Assembly: GCA_036374995.1 (NCBI GenBank)
Contig: DASUSS010000152.1
Span: 1,123 to 65,122, forward strand
Length of the DNA: 64,000 nucleotides
Source of the DNA: Longimicrobiales bacterium
Lineage (GTDB): Bacteria; Gemmatimonadota; Gemmatimonadetes; Longimicrobiales; RSA9
Direction: 5' to 3'
Shown here: positions 9,853 to 59,602 of the stretch, piece after piece
Layout: every line of letters begins with the position of its first letter
Numbering within the stretch: position 1 is the stretch's first letter
The notes under the pieces: generated by a model
Seen by the model: only the letters and a program-made list of their open reading frames with translations
Database searches by the model: none
What the model was told of the DNA's origin: nothing
Program-made: the position numbers and the translations under genes

Positions 9853-10746
9853 ATGTCGGACGCTGGAGCGGATCGCACGCGCGGAAAGGCCGTGCAGGAG
9901 TCGGCGGAGGCGGACGGCGCCGATGCGCGGCGCGCCATTGCGCGCCGTGACTTCGAGCAGGTGATCCGGCGCGCGGCCGAGCTGTCGCTGAGCGACACGG
10001 ATCCCGACGACAACCTCTCCGAGGAAGAGGTCTTCCGGATCGCGACGGAGCTGGGGCTGCCCGCGCATCACGTGCGCCAGGCGCTGTTCGAGCTGCCGGA
10101 GCTGCGCGTGAAGCCGCGCTGGTACGATGGCTGGTTCGGTCCTGCCGTCTTCTCCATCAGCCGCGTCGTTCCCGCGCACAAGGACCCGGTGCTGCGCCGG
10201 CTGGAGGACTACCTCGTCACGCGCGAATACCTCCAGATCGTACGCAGGCGTAGCGATACGATCGCGTTCGTGCCTGCGGACGACACGATCTCGAGTCTTG
10301 CCCGCGCGCTCGCGCGGCCGGGCAGACGCCACATCATCTCGCGCGCATCGCGCATGATGGTCGGCGTGCATGGCGTGCCCGAAGACGCCGCGCACGTGCG
10401 CTTCGACATCGATCTCAGTGAGGCCCGCAAGGACGCCGTGCGCAGCGGCGCACTGATCGGCGGGTCGCTCGGGCTCGCTACGGGCGCGGTCGCGGCCGTG
10501 CTGACGGGGCCCATCGCCCCCGACGTGCTCGGCATCGTTCCGCAGATCATCGTCTTCGGCGGCGCCATGGCCGGAACGATGGCGGCCGGACTGCGCATCG
10601 CCGCGGGCCGTTTCCGCGAGCGCGTCTTCTCCGCGAAGATGGAGCTCACCGGACTGCTCGACCGGCTCGAGCACGGCGGTCGCCTGGATCCGCCGCCCGC
10701 GCCCTGGCGCCGCAGTCTGCACCGGCTCTTCGGCGAGAGGCCCTGA
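9853..10746 (+). CDS. Hypothetical membrane protein
   Basis: Coding-like ORF between the thiolase and dehydrogenase genes. Gly/Ala-rich hydrophobic C-terminal segments. No recognisable motif. Confidence 0.5.
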   Translation: MSDAGADRTRGKAVQESAEADGADARRAIARRDFEQVIRRAAELSLSDTDPDDNLSEEEVFRIATELGLPAHHVRQALFELPELRVKPRWYDGWFGPAVFSISRVVPAHKDPVLRRLEDYLVTREYLQIVRRRSDTIAFVPADDTISSLARALARPGRRHIISRASRMMVGVHGVPEDAAHVRFDIDLSEARKDAVRSGALIGGSLGLATGAVAAVLTGPIAPDVLGIVPQIIVFGGAMAGTMAAGLRIAAGRFRERVFSAKMELTGLLDRLEHGGRLDPPPAPWRRSLHRLFGERP

Positions 10747-11799: not shown

Positions 11800-13182
11800 G
11801 TGAGCCATCAGCCAACCGCGAGCAGCACCGGGACGACGGGGACTGCAACGTCCGGCCGGGAGATGTGGGGCAGCCGCTTCGGCTTCCTCATGGCAGCGAT
11901 CGGGTCCGCCGTCGGACTCGGCAACATGTGGCGCTTCCCGTACTCCACCGCGGAGCACGGCGGCGCCGCATTCGTCCTGCTCTACCTCATCATCACGTTC
12001 GTCGTCGGCGTGCCGATCATGATCGCGGAGTTCGGCATCGGCCGGAGCACGCGGCTGAGTCCGATCGGTGCGTTGCGCAAGGCGGGCGGATCCGGCTGGG
12101 TCCCGGCCGGATACCTGTTCGTCGCCGCCGGATTCCTCATCCTCGCGTATTACGCGGTCATTGCAGGCTGGGTGTCGCGCTACGCGATCGAAGCGATCCT
12201 CACGCCCTGGCCCGCCGACGCCGGTGCTTACTTCGATGATGTGAGCGGCAGCGTCGCCGCGATCCTCTACCATCTCGGATTCATGACGCTCACGATCCTG
12301 ATCGTGGCGGGTGGCGTGAAGAGCGGCATCGAGCGGATGAGCTCGATCGCCATGCCGATCCTCGCCGTGATCCTGATCGGCATCGCCGTGTGGGCAACGA
12401 CGCTGACCGGCGCAGAGGAAGGATACAGCTACTACCTGACGCCGCGTTTCGAGGAGCTGATGTCGCTCGATACGCTCGCGGCCGCGGCCAGCCAGGCGTT
12501 CTTCTCGCTGTCGCTCGGCATGGGCGCCATGCTCACGTTCGCGAGCTACCTGCCGCGCGACACGAACCTGCCCCGCGAGTCGACTGTCGTGTCCCTGTCC
12601 GACTTTTCGGTGGCATTCACGGCAGGACTCGTCGTGTTCCCCGTCATCTTCGCACTCGGCCTCCAGGGCGCCGTCAGCGACAGCACGATCGGTGCGCTCT
12701 TCATCGCGATTCCCGGCGCCTTCGCCGCAATGGGTGCCGTTGGCCGCTTCGTCGGCATCCTGTTCTTCGTCGCGCTGTTCATCGGCGCCATCACATCCGC
12801 CATCGCGCTGCTCGAGGTCGTCGTTTCCTCGATCATCGACGAGTGGAAGTTCGATCGTCGGAAGGCGTCGATCATTGCCGGCGTCATCATCGCGCTCGTC
12901 GGCATCCTGCCTGCGAGCGACATCAACATTCTCGGCGCCATGGATGCGATCGCGTCCGAAGTGTTCCTCCCGTTCGGCGGACTGCTTCTCGCAATGCTCG
13001 TCGGCTGGGGCCCTGCGGGGAAGAAGCTCGAGGTGTATGCCGAAGGTGCCTCGCCCGGCGTCCGCGCGCTCATGGGAGGCTGGCTCTGGACGCTGCGCGT
13101 CGCCGTACCGCCGCTCCTCGTCGTCGTGCTGTACAAGACGATCCCGGCAGGCATCGCGGCAGTGCGCGCGATCGGGGGCTAA
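11800..13182 (+). CDS. Sodium-dependent transporter, SNF (neurotransmitter:sodium symporter) family
   Basis: WGSRFGFLMAAIGSAVGLGNMWRFPY signature and multiple TM segments. Start uncertain: GTG 11800 preferred, because GTG 11752 lies inside a hairpin; ATG 11865 is also possible. Confidence 0.85.
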   Translation: MSHQPTASSTGTTGTATSGREMWGSRFGFLMAAIGSAVGLGNMWRFPYSTAEHGGAAFVLLYLIITFVVGVPIMIAEFGIGRSTRLSPIGALRKAGGSGWVPAGYLFVAAGFLILAYYAVIAGWVSRYAIEAILTPWPADAGAYFDDVSGSVAAILYHLGFMTLTILIVAGGVKSGIERMSSIAMPILAVILIGIAVWATTLTGAEEGYSYYLTPRFEELMSLDTLAAAASQAFFSLSLGMGAMLTFASYLPRDTNLPRESTVVSLSDFSVAFTAGLVVFPVIFALGLQGAVSDSTIGALFIAIPGAFAAMGAVGRFVGILFFVALFIGAITSAIALLEVVVSSIIDEWKFDRRKASIIAGVIIALVGILPASDINILGAMDAIASEVFLPFGGLLLAMLVGWGPAGKKLEVYAEGASPGVRALMGGWLWTLRVAVPPLLVVVLYKTIPAGIAAVRAIGG

Positions 13183-22650: not shown

Positions 22651-22820
22651 TTCACCGCGGAGGCGCGGGGGGCGCTGAGAAACGGATTGGGACGGCGGCG
22701 ATCCTTGCGGTTCTGCTGCAGCCGATTCTCATGATCCGTTGCGGAATGATTCATGGTAAACGAAAGCGCCGCACCGGCGCCCCCGGCGCAACTCCGCGCC
22801 CCCCGCGACTCCGCGGTGAA
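22651..22820. repeat. Intergenic inverted repeat element (25-bp arms, 24/25 complementary, 120-nt spacer)
   Basis: TTCACCGCGGAGGCGCGGGGGGCGC at 22651..22675 pairs with GCGCCCCCCGCGACTCCGCGGTGAA at 22796..22820. Confidence 0.7.
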
Positions 22821-24400: not shown

Positions 24401-26422
<2,022 letters not shown>

Positions 26423-26430
26423 TTCCCGTG

Positions 26431-26480
26431 TGTCGTGTCGGATAAGTCTTGGGGCGAATCTTTGATAAGTTTTGGGTGGG
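26431..26480 (+). repeat. Left terminal inverted repeat
   Basis: TGTCGTGTCGGATAAGTCTTGGGGCGAATCTTTGATAAGTTTTGGGTGGG, with two GATAAGT sites 23 bp apart. Confidence 0.7.
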
Positions 26481-26921
26481 TCAGTGTCGGCTCCACATAG
26501 CCCGGCCGCACGGCCTTGGCCGGGCTCGCCGCTGCAAACTCGCTATGCGGGGGCGGGCCACGCTGCCGACGCAGTTGTGTGGTCCCCCCCTTGGCGCAGA
26601 CGCACAACGCCAGCTCGGCAAGCGAGGTCCAGAGGTGTTGGCAACAGCACCCCATGGTAGCTAGTGAGCCACCCGGACGCTTCGTCGCGCCCGTCGAGAA
26701 CATGAGCGGCGAGTTCCGCCACGCACGTGCGGGATTCATGCGCGAGTTCGGAAATCCGTCCGTTTCTAATTGAAAAGTGGGCGGCGCTCCGGATGTGTAC
26801 GCTTCGGCCCACGACGCGACAACCGTCGGGCACGTTACATGCTGCCCACGCGAACGGCCCCGAACCGACGTGCGCTCCCCGGCTGAGCCTGACATTGACA
26901 ACCTCAAACCGGAGGACACGG

Positions 26922-27746
26922 ATGAGAGTCCGATCGCTCACCAGCATTGCGGCGGCGGCGTTCGCCCTCGCAACCGTCGCCGCCTGCGACACGCCTACCG
27001 GAACCGACGGAGCCATCGGCCCGACAACCCCCTTCCTCAGTCGATTTACGCTCGACCTGCCGCAGGATCCGGTGTTCCTCAACCCGGCCGACGCGGCCGC
27101 CGACCCCAACCCGTGGTTCCCGCTCGTACCGGGTACGAGCTGGACCTACGAGGCCGAGACAGAGGACGGAGTGGAGACCACGGTGGACGCCGTCACGGGT
27201 GACACCCGCGAGGTTGATGGCGTCGAGGCAACGGTCGTTCGCGACGAGGTGTACCTGGAGGGCGAACTGATCGAGCTGACATTCGATTGGTACGCGCAGG
27301 ACACCGACGGCAACGTCTGGTACATGGGTGAGGCGTCGTGCGAATGGGAGCCGGGAGACTACCAGGAGGGCGACGAATACGAAGAGGGTTGCGGCGAAGC
27401 CGGCGATCCCGCCGGTTCGTGGGAAGCCGGTGTGGATGGCGCGGAAGCGGGGATCATCATGTGGGCGAACCCGCTCGACCATAAGGGCAAGGCGTACCGG
27501 CAGGAGTACTACGAGGGCGAAGCCGAGGACATGGCCAAGGTCCTGCACGCCGGCCTCACCGTCTCCGTCCCGGCCGGTACCTTCGCGAACTGCATTGAGA
27601 CCATGGACTGGACGCCGCTTGAGCCGGGCTCGCGGGAGCACAAGTTCTACTGCGCGGGGTACGGAATGGTCCTCGAGGTGCAGTCGCAGGGCGGCCGCAT
27701 CCGCAACGAGCTCGTGGGGTACGCCGGACTCCCCGTGGAGTTCTGA
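26922..27746 (+). CDS. Hypothetical acidic lipoprotein (only convincing ORF inside the element)
   Basis: GGAGG 6 nt before the ATG. Signal peptide with lipobox (FALATVAAC). No recognisable domain. Confidence 0.65.
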   Translation: MRVRSLTSIAAAAFALATVAACDTPTGTDGAIGPTTPFLSRFTLDLPQDPVFLNPADAAADPNPWFPLVPGTSWTYEAETEDGVETTVDAVTGDTREVDGVEATVVRDEVYLEGELIELTFDWYAQDTDGNVWYMGEASCEWEPGDYQEGDEYEEGCGEAGDPAGSWEAGVDGAEAGIIMWANPLDHKGKAYRQEYYEGEAEDMAKVLHAGLTVSVPAGTFANCIETMDWTPLEPGSREHKFYCAGYGMVLEVQSQGGRIRNELVGYAGLPVEF

Positions 27747-28124
27747 GCGCCGGTATTCACGTCTGTTAGCGGGTCTGGGTTCGTGGTCCACGATTGTGCG
27801 GAGTCGGCGGAGCGCAGGTATCCGCCACGAGAGTGGCCCACGAGTCCTGCGACGAGGGCGGCGGTGCGTCGTTGTTCTGCCGAGACCGAGTGCCCTGGGC
27901 GGCCCAGACCCGACCTGTGTACCTACCACTTTAATCCTAGAACCAGTTTATTCTCGTATGTTCGACAAATGGATTTTCCGCCACGACACTCGACCTGTGC
28001 GATAAGGGCCCGACAACCTCTTCGTGGTTGACAGGCCCTCTGTATTCATTTCTTTGAACTTATCTGAAACCGCCTGGCCGGACTTTTCTAAAACGGTTCG
28101 TCGGACTTATCTGCGGCCACCCCT

Positions 28125-28174
28125 ATCCCCCAAAACTTATCAAAAATTCGCCCCAAAACTTATCTGACACGACA
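28125..28174 (-). repeat. Right terminal inverted repeat
   Basis: Reverse complement reads TGTCGTGTCAGATAAGTTTTGGGGCGAATTTTTGATAAGTTTTGGGGGAT, mirroring the left end. Confidence 0.7.
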
Positions 28175-28255
28175 CCCGTGTTGTTGGAGCGTGCGGTCGA
28201 GGACCCTGCTCCGACGCGACGATCCCGGTCGGCGTCGTTCCGGAGGATATTGATC

Positions 28256-29935
28256 ATGCGCCCGAATACCCGTTGCGCGATGGCGATCGTGGGCCTGCTC
28301 TGCATGCTCGTGCCGGGCATGCTGCAGGCGCAGTCGACGCGTTCGGCCACGCCGCCGGCAATCCTCCTGCGACATGCGACACTGCTCGACGGCCAGAGCG
28401 CGAATCCGCAGGTGGACGTAGCGATCATGATCCGCGGCGGACGGATCGAGAATATCCAGGCCGATCACGATGGAGCTGCACCGATCGGCAGCGCGTCGGA
28501 TTCGGTGATCGACCTTCGCGGAGCGTGGGTCATGCCCGGCCTGATCGACGCACACGCGCACCTCGGCGTCTCCCGGATGTGGGGTGAGCCTGACAGCATC
28601 GCGGCGCAACGTGCGCTCGACGGGGGCGTGACGACGGTGCGTTCCATGGGCAACGTCCCCGGATTCGGTGACGTGGCGCTCAGGCATCTCTTTCTCGAAG
28701 GCGGTGCCCGCCTTCCACGCGTGCTTGCCGCCGGGGAATGGGTCATCCCCGTCGTGAGCGAGGACTGGATTCACGATTTCCCGACGATACGATCGCTTCT
28801 CGCTCCCGCCACCCCGGCGGATAGTGCGCAGCGTCTGTTTCCCGGCCCGGGCTGGCGGCTGGGCGGGAACGCCGCCGCGATCGACAGCACCGTCGCGTTG
28901 CTGGCGGCGCGAGGGGCGGACTGGGTGAAAGTGTTCGCCACGGGTCGAGCGGGCACCGCCAGATCCGACCCGCAGACTTCCCTCCTCGGCGAGAGCGACC
29001 TGCGCGCAGCTGTGGTCGCGGCTCGACGGCGGGGCCTGCGCGTCGCCGCGCACGCATACACCGACGAGGGCATCCGGGCCGCGGTACTCGCGGGCGCCCG
29101 CACCATCGAGCACGGCGCGTTCGTGTCGGAAGAGACGCTCCGTGTGATGCGCGAACATGGCACCTGCCTCGTGCCGACGCTCAGCGCCTTCGACGAGCCG
29201 TCGCCGGACTCCGTGGTTCGTGCCCGTGCGGGGGAGATGCGTTCCGCCGCGCAGCGCGCGGTCCGTCAGGCCCACGACCTCGGCGTGCCGGTCATCGCGG
29301 GTACGGACATGCCGTACGCACCTGGCGGACGGGGAGTGGTCGCGGAGTTGCTCGCGTTGACGGAAGCCGGACTCGGCCCGGACGAGGCGCTCCGCGCCGC
29401 GACCTCGCACGCCGCGGCCTGTCTCGGCATCGCCGACCGGACTGGCACCGTGACGGCCGGCCTCGACGCCGACCTGCTCGTGCTCGACGGCGATCCACGC
29501 TCGGACCTGTCTCTTCTCGATCGGCCGAAATTCGTGATCCTGCGCGGGCGGCTCGTCCGCCGCGTGCCGGTCGCGGAAATCATCCGGGCGGTGCTCGAAA
29601 GCGAGGGGATCGAGGCCGCCCGCGAGCGCGTCCGCGCGCTGCACGGGTCGCGCGACGACTCGCTCCGCTATGGGGAATTCGAGCTGATCGGTCTCGCTGT
29701 CCAACTGGCGACAGTCCGGCGCGTACCCGAAGCCCTCGCGATGTTCGAGATCAACGTCGAGGTGTATCCCGAGTCCCCGAATGCGTGGGACGCCCTCGGC
29801 CAGGCTTTTCTCATGGTTCGACGACCCGAGGATGCGCGACGGGCATTCGTGCGGGCCGTCGAGCTTGCCGAGGAACAAGGCCATCCGCGACTACCGGAGT
29901 TTCGTGCGAAACTGGACCGCCTGCCACGCCAATAG
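28256..29935 (+). CDS. Amidohydrolase-family metallohydrolase with C-terminal helical (TPR-like) extension, secreted
   Basis: Signal-like N-terminus. GLIDAHAHLG metal-binding motif, later AAHAY and GTD. Start chosen inside ORF 28178..29935. Confidence 0.8.
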   Translation: MRPNTRCAMAIVGLLCMLVPGMLQAQSTRSATPPAILLRHATLLDGQSANPQVDVAIMIRGGRIENIQADHDGAAPIGSASDSVIDLRGAWVMPGLIDAHAHLGVSRMWGEPDSIAAQRALDGGVTTVRSMGNVPGFGDVALRHLFLEGGARLPRVLAAGEWVIPVVSEDWIHDFPTIRSLLAPATPADSAQRLFPGPGWRLGGNAAAIDSTVALLAARGADWVKVFATGRAGTARSDPQTSLLGESDLRAAVVAARRRGLRVAAHAYTDEGIRAAVLAGARTIEHGAFVSEETLRVMREHGTCLVPTLSAFDEPSPDSVVRARAGEMRSAAQRAVRQAHDLGVPVIAGTDMPYAPGGRGVVAELLALTEAGLGPDEALRAATSHAAACLGIADRTGTVTAGLDADLLVLDGDPRSDLSLLDRPKFVILRGRLVRRVPVAEIIRAVLESEGIEAARERVRALHGSRDDSLRYGEFELIGLAVQLATVRRVPEALAMFEINVEVYPESPNAWDALGQAFLMVRRPEDARRAFVRAVELAEEQGHPRLPEFRAKLDRLPRQ

Positions 29936-29978
29936 CGAGCGGTAGAGCGACAAGGTCCGGGAACCTCAGCCGCTCCGC

Positions 29979-31709
29979 TCACGCGGTCCGCGCCCTCCGT
30001 TTCAGCCACTCCCGCCGCACGAGCCACGCCGCCGCGAGCACGGCGAGCACCATCAGCGGTCCGGTCACCAGCATGAAGATCGCCCAGCGCCTGGTGCGAT
30101 CGAAAGCGCGGATGTCCTCGGCCTCGTCGCGGATCCGCGCGAGGTGACCGAGCACATCGGCGTAGCCGTACCACCAGGCGTAGTCCGGGCTCATGTGGAA
30201 CGCGCCCTTGTACGACTTGAGGTTCGAGAAGAAGAACATGTCGAAGTAATCGCGCTCGATGGCCGAGACGTTGAAGTACAGGCCTGCCGGCCAGTGCTGC
30301 GCGAAGCCGGTCGGCAGCTCGATCGCGCTGAAGCGCGGGCCGGGCAGCAGCCCGGCGGCGAGCTGGCCGTGCCCCGCCTCGATGAGGCCGTCATCGTAGA
30401 GCCGGCCGAGGATCGCGCGCGCGTCCACGACCAGTGCATCACCGGCGAGCTTGTGCGCGTCCGCCGAGCGCAGGTAGTCGCGCGCCTTCACCTCGGAGTG
30501 GCAGGTGATGCAGACCTTCACCATCTCGTTGCGCCTGGCCTGATTTTCCTCGAGCGTGAGCAGGTCGGTCAGCTCGCCCGCTGCCGCCTGCGTGCCCATG
30601 CCCCAGATGATCTTGCGCGTCATGTTGTGACTCGACGCGCGACCGCCCTGCTCGTCGACGTAGAGCATGTGGCAGTACGCGCACGTCGGTGTCTCCCATT
30701 CCGCCTCGGCGAGCGGAACTGTCCAGTCCCAGGAATCGCCACGCGCGGCATAGATCGATCCGTGCTTCGAGCTCATGTACGCCTCGTAGTTCGGATGGTC
30801 CGGGCCCATGTGACACGTGTAGCACGCCTCCGGCTTGCGCGCTTCGTCGAGGCTGAACGCATGGCGCGTATGACAGGCGATGCAGCCATTGCGGTACTGG
30901 AGACTGCTGGTATCGATGTATCGCATCAGCGAGTCGCTCCACAGCGTGTCCGCCGTGGCGCCGGCCTGGGCGTGACAGGGGTCGCAACCCATCTCCATGA
31001 CCTTACGCGGCATCTGCAGGTAGTTCGGCACGGCAATGTTGCGATCCCAGTTGATCCCGATGTCGCCCGGACCGGGGCCGTAGGAGTGACCCGCATCGAG
31101 CACGTGCTCCTGATAGATCGCGGGGTGGCAGGCCGCACAGCGCGTCTCCGACACGCGGCCCTTGCTGGCGGTGATCACGCTGTGATCGGTGCCGTGGCAG
31201 TCGGCGCACGTGAGCTGCGGCTGCGGGAAGTCCACGCGCGGGTTCTGGATGCCCCCCTGGCCCATGGCGCTGCCGGCGAACTGGCGCACGATCACGGGAT
31301 TGAGTGTGGCGTGGCACTCCGCGCACGAGGCCGCGGGCTGCTCGCCCGTGGGGACGTCGCGCCGGAGCGGGGGCGGTGCCGCGCCCAGCGCGCTGACGTA
31401 ATCGTAGATCGATCTGAGCTCGGCGTCGGAGACTACGGCGGCGGGGAATGCGGGCATGATCCCGCGTGGCTCACGCACCTGCGCCGTGAACTGATCGAAC
31501 GCGAGCGCAGTCCGCGCAAGTGTGGGACCCACGCCGCCCTGTGCGCTCGCGCCGTGGCAGCCGAGGCAGCCTCTGGCCGTGTAGAGCCACTCGCCGGACC
31601 CCGGTTCCTGACCGCGGAGATCCGCAGCGGTGGACGCAACGAGGACCGGTACCACGGTGATCGCCGTCCTTGCCGAAACCGCTCGGGAGACAATCCGTCG
31701 CATCTGCAT
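29979..31709 (-). CDS. Multihaem cytochrome c, hydroxylamine-oxidoreductase (HAO) family, fused to an N-terminal monohaem cytochrome c and a C-terminal TM anchor
   Basis: Nine CxxCH motifs (CLGCH, CAECH, CADCH, CAACH, CDPCH, CIACH, CYTCH, CAYCH, CITCH). HAO-type block CIACHTRHAFSLDEARKPEACYTCHMGPDHPNYEAYMSSKHG. GGAGG before ATG 31709. Confidence 0.85.
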   Translation of the reverse strand: MQMRRIVSRAVSARTAITVVPVLVASTAADLRGQEPGSGEWLYTARGCLGCHGASAQGGVGPTLARTALAFDQFTAQVREPRGIMPAFPAAVVSDAELRSIYDYVSALGAAPPPLRRDVPTGEQPAASCAECHATLNPVIVRQFAGSAMGQGGIQNPRVDFPQPQLTCADCHGTDHSVITASKGRVSETRCAACHPAIYQEHVLDAGHSYGPGPGDIGINWDRNIAVPNYLQMPRKVMEMGCDPCHAQAGATADTLWSDSLMRYIDTSSLQYRNGCIACHTRHAFSLDEARKPEACYTCHMGPDHPNYEAYMSSKHGSIYAARGDSWDWTVPLAEAEWETPTCAYCHMLYVDEQGGRASSHNMTRKIIWGMGTQAAAGELTDLLTLEENQARRNEMVKVCITCHSEVKARDYLRSADAHKLAGDALVVDARAILGRLYDDGLIEAGHGQLAAGLLPGPRFSAIELPTGFAQHWPAGLYFNVSAIERDYFDMFFFSNLKSYKGAFHMSPDYAWWYGYADVLGHLARIRDEAEDIRAFDRTRRWAIFMLVTGPLMVLAVLAAAWLVRREWLKRRARTA

Positions 31710-36633: not shown

Positions 36634-36673
36634 GCATCGAATATAATGATGCCGACCGCAGCAGTGCCCGGCT

Positions 36674-51450: not shown

Positions 51451-51627
51451 GTGTGCGTGTGGCAAGGGAGCGTGTGCGTGAGCGGTCACACGGCCCACGG
51501 ACTCACGCACACGCACACGCACGCACACGCACACGCGCACAGCACACGCACACAGCACACGCACACAGCACACGCACACGCACACGGCACACGGCACAAG
51601 GACACACGCACACAGCACAGGCACACG
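51451..51627. repeat. Imperfect CA/CG simple-sequence tract (CACACG / CAGCACACGCACA units)
   Basis: About 130 nt of near-continuous alternating pyrimidine-purine (51503..51627), preceded by complementary GTGTGCGTGTG / CGTGTGCGTG blocks at 51451 and 51471. Confidence 0.75.
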
Positions 51628-59405: not shown

Positions 59406-59435
59406 GCTCGGTGCTCAGCTCGCATTGAACAGAAT

Positions 59436-59554
59436 CAACCGCGGAGGGCGCGGAGCGACGGCGAGGTTCGGGAGGCGCGCCGGCAGTGCAGCAACTTTGC
59501 CTCACTGCCCGTGTGACCTCCCTGTCTCGCCCTGCTCCGCGCCCTCCGCGATTG
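59436..59554. repeat. Second copy of the CCGCGGAGG-type intergenic inverted repeat (21-bp arms, 20/21, 77-nt spacer)
   Basis: CAACCGCGGAGGGCGCGGAGC at 59436..59456 pairs with GCTCCGCGCCCTCCGCGATTG at 59534..59554. Lies between convergent fumC and the symporter gene. Confidence 0.65.
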
Positions 59555-59602
59555 ACTCTGTCGTGTTCTACCCTGCGGACCCGGCTGACGAACGGCAACG
59601 GA

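Follow-up and report, generated by a model that had tools for sequence, protein, structure and literature searches.

A probable transposase-less cargo cassette with multi-site inverted ends downstream of gyrB in a Longimicrobiales bacterium

Immediately downstream of gyrB in an uncultured, soil-type Longimicrobiales bacterium (Gemmatimonadota) lies a block of DNA with inverted ends and a single lipoprotein gene, and the question raised by this locus is how the block came to be placed there. The window analysed in the current study is a 64-kb stretch of a 67,330-nt contig from a short-read metagenome-assembled genome (MAG), in which the block, hereafter the element, occupies positions 26431–28174. 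We consider it probable, with moderate confidence, that the element is a transposable but non-autonomous cargo cassette, known from a single copy, which can be likened to a mobile insertion cassette (MIC) or to a tni-defective derivative of Tn402. Assignment to a particular transposon superfamily is held with less confidence than this.

Inverted ends, flanking duplication and site arrays

The two arms of the element, 26431–26476 and 28129–28174, form a 46-nt inverted repeat in which 43 of the 46 positions are identical, and CCCGTG is found immediately outside both of them. The TGA stop codon of gyrB (26420–26422) is followed by TT, by the left copy of CCCGTG (26425–26430) and then by the element from 26431, which places the start of the element 8 bp beyond the stop codon. 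A 29-nt end pattern occurs at only two places in the window, both of them ends of the element, and gave no match in 100 shuffles. Nowhere else in the 64 kb is there a long, highly identical inverted repeat; the remaining long-range pairs are 71–87% complementary. Identical 6-mers at the spacing of the flanks have an empirical frequency of 4.5e-4 in this window.

These results agree closely with the initial annotation, which was made from the sequence alone. It had described an element of about 1.74 kb situated 8 bp past the gyrB stop codon, and the coordinates 26431–28174 hold. The inverted ends, given there as 44/47 identical, are confirmed as 43/46, the extra pair being the flanking G26430/C28175. 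The CCCGTG duplication, which had been put at 5–6 bp, is present on both sides and is 6 bp long, with a probability of about 5e-4 of arising by chance; the flanks are not identical if a 5-bp duplication is assumed. The TG..CA tips, short duplication and subterminal sites that had been cited as hallmarks of DDE transposons are all to be found in the sequence.

The ends are composed of repeated sites. The exact heptamer GATAAGT occurs six times in the window, always within the ends of the element and always pointing inwards. The cores of the left end lie at 26441 and 26464, a spacing of 23 bp, and those of the right end at 28158, 28135, 28105, 28082 (the near-copy GAAAAGT) and 28058, with successive spacings of 23, 30, 23 and 24 bp. 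At each end the outer two sites read GATAAGTYTTGGG and together constitute the inverted repeat; since the additional sites are confined to the right, the ends can be described as unequal phased arrays of two sites (left) and five sites (right). Near-sites occur at a density of 5.4 per kb within the element as against 0.37 per kb outside it, and the GC content is about 0.50 over the right end, compared with 0.62–0.70 across most of the surrounding region.

An assembly artefact, that is, a chimeric join at repeats in the MAG, would be one explanation for such a structure. The contig was assembled from short reads, and a contig of the same species (L095; the numbers L001–L016, L095 and L096 denote loci of relatives compared with the window) stops short of the junction. 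This explanation is nevertheless extremely unlikely, as chimeric joins do not produce 46-nt inverted repeats together with flanking direct repeats, and the structure is internally coherent: its ends match, as do the two copies of the duplication, and the gene between them is intact and host-like in codon usage.

Table 1. Features of the element and of its immediate neighbours (window coordinates)
Feature	Position	Strand	Evidence
gyrB	24470..26422	+	650-aa open reading frame; 100% identical to NCBI Longimicrobiales MAG GyrB; four GyrB Pfam domains
Left flanking direct repeat CCCGTG, putative 6-bp target-site duplication	26425..26430	.	Read from sequence
Left terminal inverted repeat: TGTCGT tip and two GATAAGTYTTGGG sites 23 bp apart (cores 26441, 26464)	26431..26476	+	Best self-periodicity 23 bp
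Left internal spacer, non-coding, unusually well folded	26477..26921	+	No GC3 coding signal; RNA fold z = -3.6
Cargo gene, 274-aa lipoprotein	26922..27746	+	Strong GC3 signal; signal peptide; lipobox VAAC; conserved Cys22
Right internal spacer, non-coding, GC down to about 0.50	27747..28049	.	Fold z = -0.5
Inner right-end site array: GATAAGT at 28105 and 28058, GAAAAGT at 28082, inward	28050..28128	-	Repeat-family analysis (family D7) and heptamer scan
Right terminal inverted repeat: TGTCGT tip and two GATAAGTTTTGGG sites (cores 28158, 28135)	28129..28174	-	Sequence comparison
Right flanking direct repeat CCCGTG	28175..28180	.	Read from sequence
Amidohydrolase with C-terminal TPR region, right-hand neighbour	28256..29935	+	Pfam Amidohydro_1, 2.6e-34

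Interior of the element and its cargo gene

Within the element, the codon-position GC (GC3) signature of a gene is confined to 26922–27746. A Pfam scan of every open frame in the spacers (26477–26921 and 27747–28128) gave no match, as did an Rfam scan of the element, and scans of the spacers for sigma-70 promoters and intrinsic terminators found none. The earlier statement that the element contains no transposase, and that the lipoprotein gene is its sole convincing gene, is thus borne out by GC3 and Pfam, and no transposase relic was seen either. In addition, about 50 of the window's genes were scanned with Pfam, and no transposase, integrase, recombinase, resolvase or transposition ATPase came to light. 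By BLAST, the ends and spacers showed no similarity to 2 Mb of fetched loci or to the rest of the window. The homology of relatives to the cargo gene begins at 26879, 43 bp before its start, and the left spacer up to 26878 matches no fetched locus.

The left spacer (26477–26921) folds much better than shuffled controls and also holds a 28-nt imperfect inverted repeat (26506–26533 and 26705–26732). Neither an Rfam match nor a homologue was found for this spacer.

The cargo lipoprotein belongs to no family in Pfam or NCBIfam, and its homologues number in the thousands; those that were aligned, from Longimicrobiales and from unlabelled metagenome contigs, are 57–83% identical to it. Look-ups of the exact lipoprotein and GyrB sequences found neither of them on record. 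The cargo gene is intact. Its dN/dS ratio against four orthologues is 0.13–0.21 (about 0.18), and two chromosomal orthologues compared with each other give 0.20. Because the ratio resembles that between chromosomal orthologues, the cargo gene is considered functional and under purifying selection. The AlphaFold model of the lipoprotein is a confident one (pLDDT 88), and its best fold matches are the YmcC-like beta-barrel lipoproteins 3fzx and 4fvs; matches to the anti-sigma-binding proteins RseB and MucB are weaker, with low TM-scores.

In the loci L002–L011 of relatives, the orthologue lies directly after an extracytoplasmic function (ECF) sigma factor gene and a 203-aa gene, an ECF sigma/anti-sigma pair, and beside a CarboxypepD_reg/TonB-receptor-like gene. 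The gene preceding it in L001, the closest relative, is a DoxX gene. The repeats of the element were not found in the relatives' cargo loci, whose DNA similarity to the window is restricted to 26879–27746, and a search of the window for the ECF sigma cluster did not find it. The same gene therefore occurs in three contexts, after the ECF pair, after DoxX and in the present position, and has transposon-like ends in the last of these only. The ECF neighbourhood, taken with the weak RseB/MucB fold match, suggests that the lipoprotein may be part of a signalling module that responds to envelope stress or acts across the envelope.

Further copies, the gyrB flank and the weighing of explanations

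A search for further copies of the ends had been proposed at the outset as a check, and it found none in GTDB representatives, JGI metagenomes, IMG/VR, PLSDB or phages. The pattern TGT-N7-GATAAGT-N-TTGG-N11-GATAAGT, which fixes the TGT tip, the two GATAAGT cores, TTGG and the spacing but leaves most positions free, had no match in 185,579 GTDB species-representative genomes and none in JGI metagenomes. A 17-mer tip pattern had five matches in IMG/VR; none of them extends past the pattern, and they are therefore regarded as chance. Comparison of both ends with PLSDB plasmids, and of the right end with phages, yielded nothing with E < 1. A 47-aa open reading frame spanning the right-end array, compared with 1.84 billion representative proteins, retrieved translated tandem-repeat junk only. 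The description of the element as a non-autonomous cargo derivative mobilised in trans consequently stands as regards structure, while neither a partner nor a second copy was found in its support.

Gene order upstream of gyrB is kept in the four closest relatives (GyrB 92–93% identical). Synteny breaks exactly at the gyrB stop codon in L012, L013, L015 and L016, and the genes that come next differ in each of them. Compared with L012, the window carries about 10 kb extra, with synteny resuming near 36650, and this extra DNA holds the amidohydrolase, a multi-haem cytochrome, a beta-eliminating lyase, argS and other genes. A genomic island after gyrB was considered and rejected: the approximately 10 kb absent from L012 includes argS and other housekeeping genes, and the region is for this reason interpreted as the product of rearrangement. 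The beta-eliminating lyase gene downstream of gyrB is inverted in the window relative to L016. In L015 (GyrB 93% identical), arrays of a GGGGCT[CT][CT]GGAGCT unit begin directly after the gyrB stop codon (9958–10000) and recur in inverted orientation about 2.4 kb downstream (12214–12259 and 12388–12421); the genes that they bracket show partial synteny with other relatives.

The location of the element exactly at a synteny breakpoint, together with its single copy and undemonstrated mobility, would accord with an origin other than transposition, in which the ends either serve as sites of recombination for a segment that inverts or otherwise rearranges, or arose as a by-product when the region downstream of gyrB was rearranged. 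Such an origin appears quite unlikely to us, given that a 6-bp direct repeat, TG..CA tips and phased inward arrays would not be expected of invertons or of illegitimate recombination, and that the window yielded no gene for a recombinase or resolvase. An inverton as such was rejected on the lack of a recombinase gene in the window and the presence of the flanking duplication.

The position of the element also bears on a further explanation, in which a TnsD/TniQ-type protein, recognising the conserved 3' end of gyrB as a dedicated attachment site, would have directed a miniature element of Tn7-like type to this position. Insertion 8 bp past the stop codon of a universal gene, leaving gyrB intact, would be consistent with this, as would the high variability of the region after gyrB amongst relatives and the combination of TGT tips with unequal site arrays, which resemble the three left-end and four right-end sites of Tn7 (PMC8649781). 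The variable stretch includes housekeeping genes such as argS, however, and hence points to rearrangement, and no insertion bounded by inverted repeats follows the gyrB stop codon in any of about 29 other Gemmatimonadota loci (0/4 close and 0/~25 distant) by a test that scores the window itself at E = 1e-15. Tn7 generates a target duplication of 5 bp, not 6 bp, and its four-site right end faces glmS; in the window, by contrast, the many-site end is distal to gyrB. Neither gyrB nor gyrase is mentioned in a survey of 6,549 Tn7-like elements (PMC8649781). Attachment-site targeting of this kind, raised as a speculation in the initial annotation, is not upheld by these results and is very unlikely.

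An empty site was also sought. As reconstructed, it would read GACGTGTGATTCCCGTGTTGTTGGAGCG. A search of JGI metagenomes with the amidohydrolase retrieved only relatives of 25–32% identity. In a set of 5.8 billion proteins, the amidohydrolase matched L095 at 99% identity, in a contig that begins within the gene, and L096 at 83%, with unrelated genes upstream. A recF-anchored scan of GTDB was saturated by a universal motif, its best match being 57% identical, and missed the close relatives. L095 (Logan SRR26663081) comes from an independent run, and its DNA, equivalent to 28492–30189 of the window, is 99.35% identical; it therefore represents the same species sampled elsewhere.

Several points count against a transposable cassette. 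There is a single copy, with none more in the window, GTDB representatives, JGI metagenomes, IMG/VR, plasmids or phages, the other contigs of the source MAG not having been searched; no autonomous partner with matching ends was found in the window or in the databases searched, again with those contigs left out. The gyrB–amidohydrolase junction is kept by no available relative; all of them show rearrangement on both flanks, which is why no empty site was recovered. The 6-bp duplication departs from that of Tn7, given above. It likewise differs from the 5 bp of Tn402 and Tn5053 (PMC7765201). The ends have no significant sequence similarity to any known element beyond the TGTCGT tip, so that what is seen is a resemblance of design and not family membership. 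Lastly, the boundary is ambiguous between a 6-bp and a 4-bp duplication: since CCCGTG is partly self-complementary, an alternative reading gives the element GTGT tips and a duplication of 4 bp, CCGT.

This ambiguity would permit a derivative of another DDE family, of IS21 or IS481 type, with either GTGT tips and a 4-bp duplication or TGT tips and a 6-bp duplication. TG..CA tips, multiple terminal repeats and duplications of 4–8 bp are traits of IS21. In IS100, the sole IS21-family member examined, there is again a TGT tip, but the sites are about 39 bp apart and start further from the tip, unlike the 23-bp layout shared by the element with Tn552 and Tn402; IS481-type ends are not known to have site arrays. 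A derivative of this type is judged unlikely.

If the element is a transposable cargo cassette, as we favour, a DDE transposase of the TnsB/TniA/p480 type, encoded elsewhere, would bind the arrayed sites, pair the ends and cleave at the CA-3' tips. The tips would then be joined to staggered target positions 6 bp apart, repair of which would yield the CCCGTG duplication, and an AAA+ partner would probably assist, as in Tn552, Tn5053/Tn402 and Tn7. The element may be a deletion derivative of an autonomous ancestor, whose transposition genes would have lain next to the right end, the one with five sites and an AT-richer spacer. The cargo may be a native Longimicrobiales gene, moved to its present position from a locus linked to an ECF sigma factor. 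The element is a single, possibly fossil, copy. A broader proposal is a long shot: that it is the first trace of an undescribed Gemmatimonadota lineage of the Tn552/Tn5053/Tn7 superfamily, which would make 6-bp duplications, find in the 3' flank of gyrB a safe place to land and shuttle single envelope genes between chromosomal loci.

To our knowledge, the mobile elements of the mostly uncultured Gemmatimonadota are little described. If the element is real, multi-site-end transposition of the Tn552/Tn402/Tn7 kind operates in this phylum, and single chromosomal envelope genes can be relocated as transposase-less cassettes. The main value of the element is that it offers a probe for an undescribed Gemmatimonadota transposon lineage: soil metagenomes can be searched for the autonomous partner with the 46-nt end and the GATAAGTYTTGGG site, the end probe motif being TGTCGTGTC[AG]GATAAGT.

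On the right-hand side of the element, the longest open reading frame of the amidohydrolase starts at a GTG (28178–28180) within the right copy of the duplication. The true start is likely to be the ATG at 28256, which is preceded by a GGAGGA ribosome-binding site; a signal peptide is present. Elsewhere in the window, hairpin repeats at 22651–22820 and 59429–59561, with arms 93% complementary and 77–112 nt apart, have the common core CCGCGGAGG(G)CGCGG and look, from their sequence, like an intergenic family of the repetitive extragenic palindromic (REP) or miniature inverted-repeat transposable element (MITE) type. A GT-rich/CA-rich imperfect palindrome (TGTGCGTGTGG... / ...CACACGCACACA) lies at 51452–51554, just 3' of a ferritin-like gene.

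Comparison with known transposons

Amongst the elements compared, Tn552, whose ends were read from pMW2, has a TGTC tip (TGTCAC, as against TGTCGT here) and, as in the window, two related sites 23 bp apart within an inverted repeat of about 46–50 nt. Its target duplication is 6–7 bp, and is 7 bp (TAATTGT) in pMW2, so that the 6-bp duplication of the window fits Tn552 better than Tn402 or Tn7, both of which have 5 bp. The sites themselves, TATATGAGAA in Tn552 and GATAAGT here, have no sequence similarity. Tn552, from Staphylococcus, encodes the p480 DDE transposase, the p271 ATPase and the BinL resolvase, none of which is present in the element or the window; the element differs further in the three extra sites at one end and in its phylum and GC content.

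The IRi end of Tn402 and class 1 integrons (exact in >5000 plasmids) likewise combines a TGTCGT tip with two direct sites at a spacing of 23 bp. In In2, IRt has the tip site and at least two more, and hence shows the inequality of site numbers seen in the element. The 25-bp terminal repeats of Tn5053/Tn402 (TGTCRTTTTCAGAAGACG...) agree with the element only in the TGTCGT tip and the 23-bp phasing. Tn5053 and Tn402 target res sites. Here the target is the gyrB 3' flank, and the window, in which res sites were not searched for, yielded no resolvase gene. The tni-defective In0 and In2 are mobilised in trans when tni genes are supplied (PMC7765201), which is the behaviour that would be expected of the element under the favoured reading. 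The likeness to Tn7-like elements, in TGT tips, unequal arrays (two versus five sites here) and insertion just past a conserved gene, is an architectural match only, as the element has no tnsABC or tniQ genes and does not recur at gyrB.

MICs have a parent insertion sequence or transposon with matching ends and usually occur in several copies, unlike the element, which is present once and for which no parent was found; its ends, moreover, carry the multi-site arrays typical of Tn552, Tn402 and Tn7, and not those of IS231 or Tn3. In overall plan the element and the MICs are nonetheless alike: both are bounded by terminal inverted repeats and flanked by a duplication, and both carry one passenger gene but no transposase. 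Transposase-less cargo cassettes are thus already known as a kind of element, with examples in the IS231-derived MIC231, the Tn3-family MICs of Xanthomonas that carry TALE genes and the qnrS2 cassette of Aeromonas.

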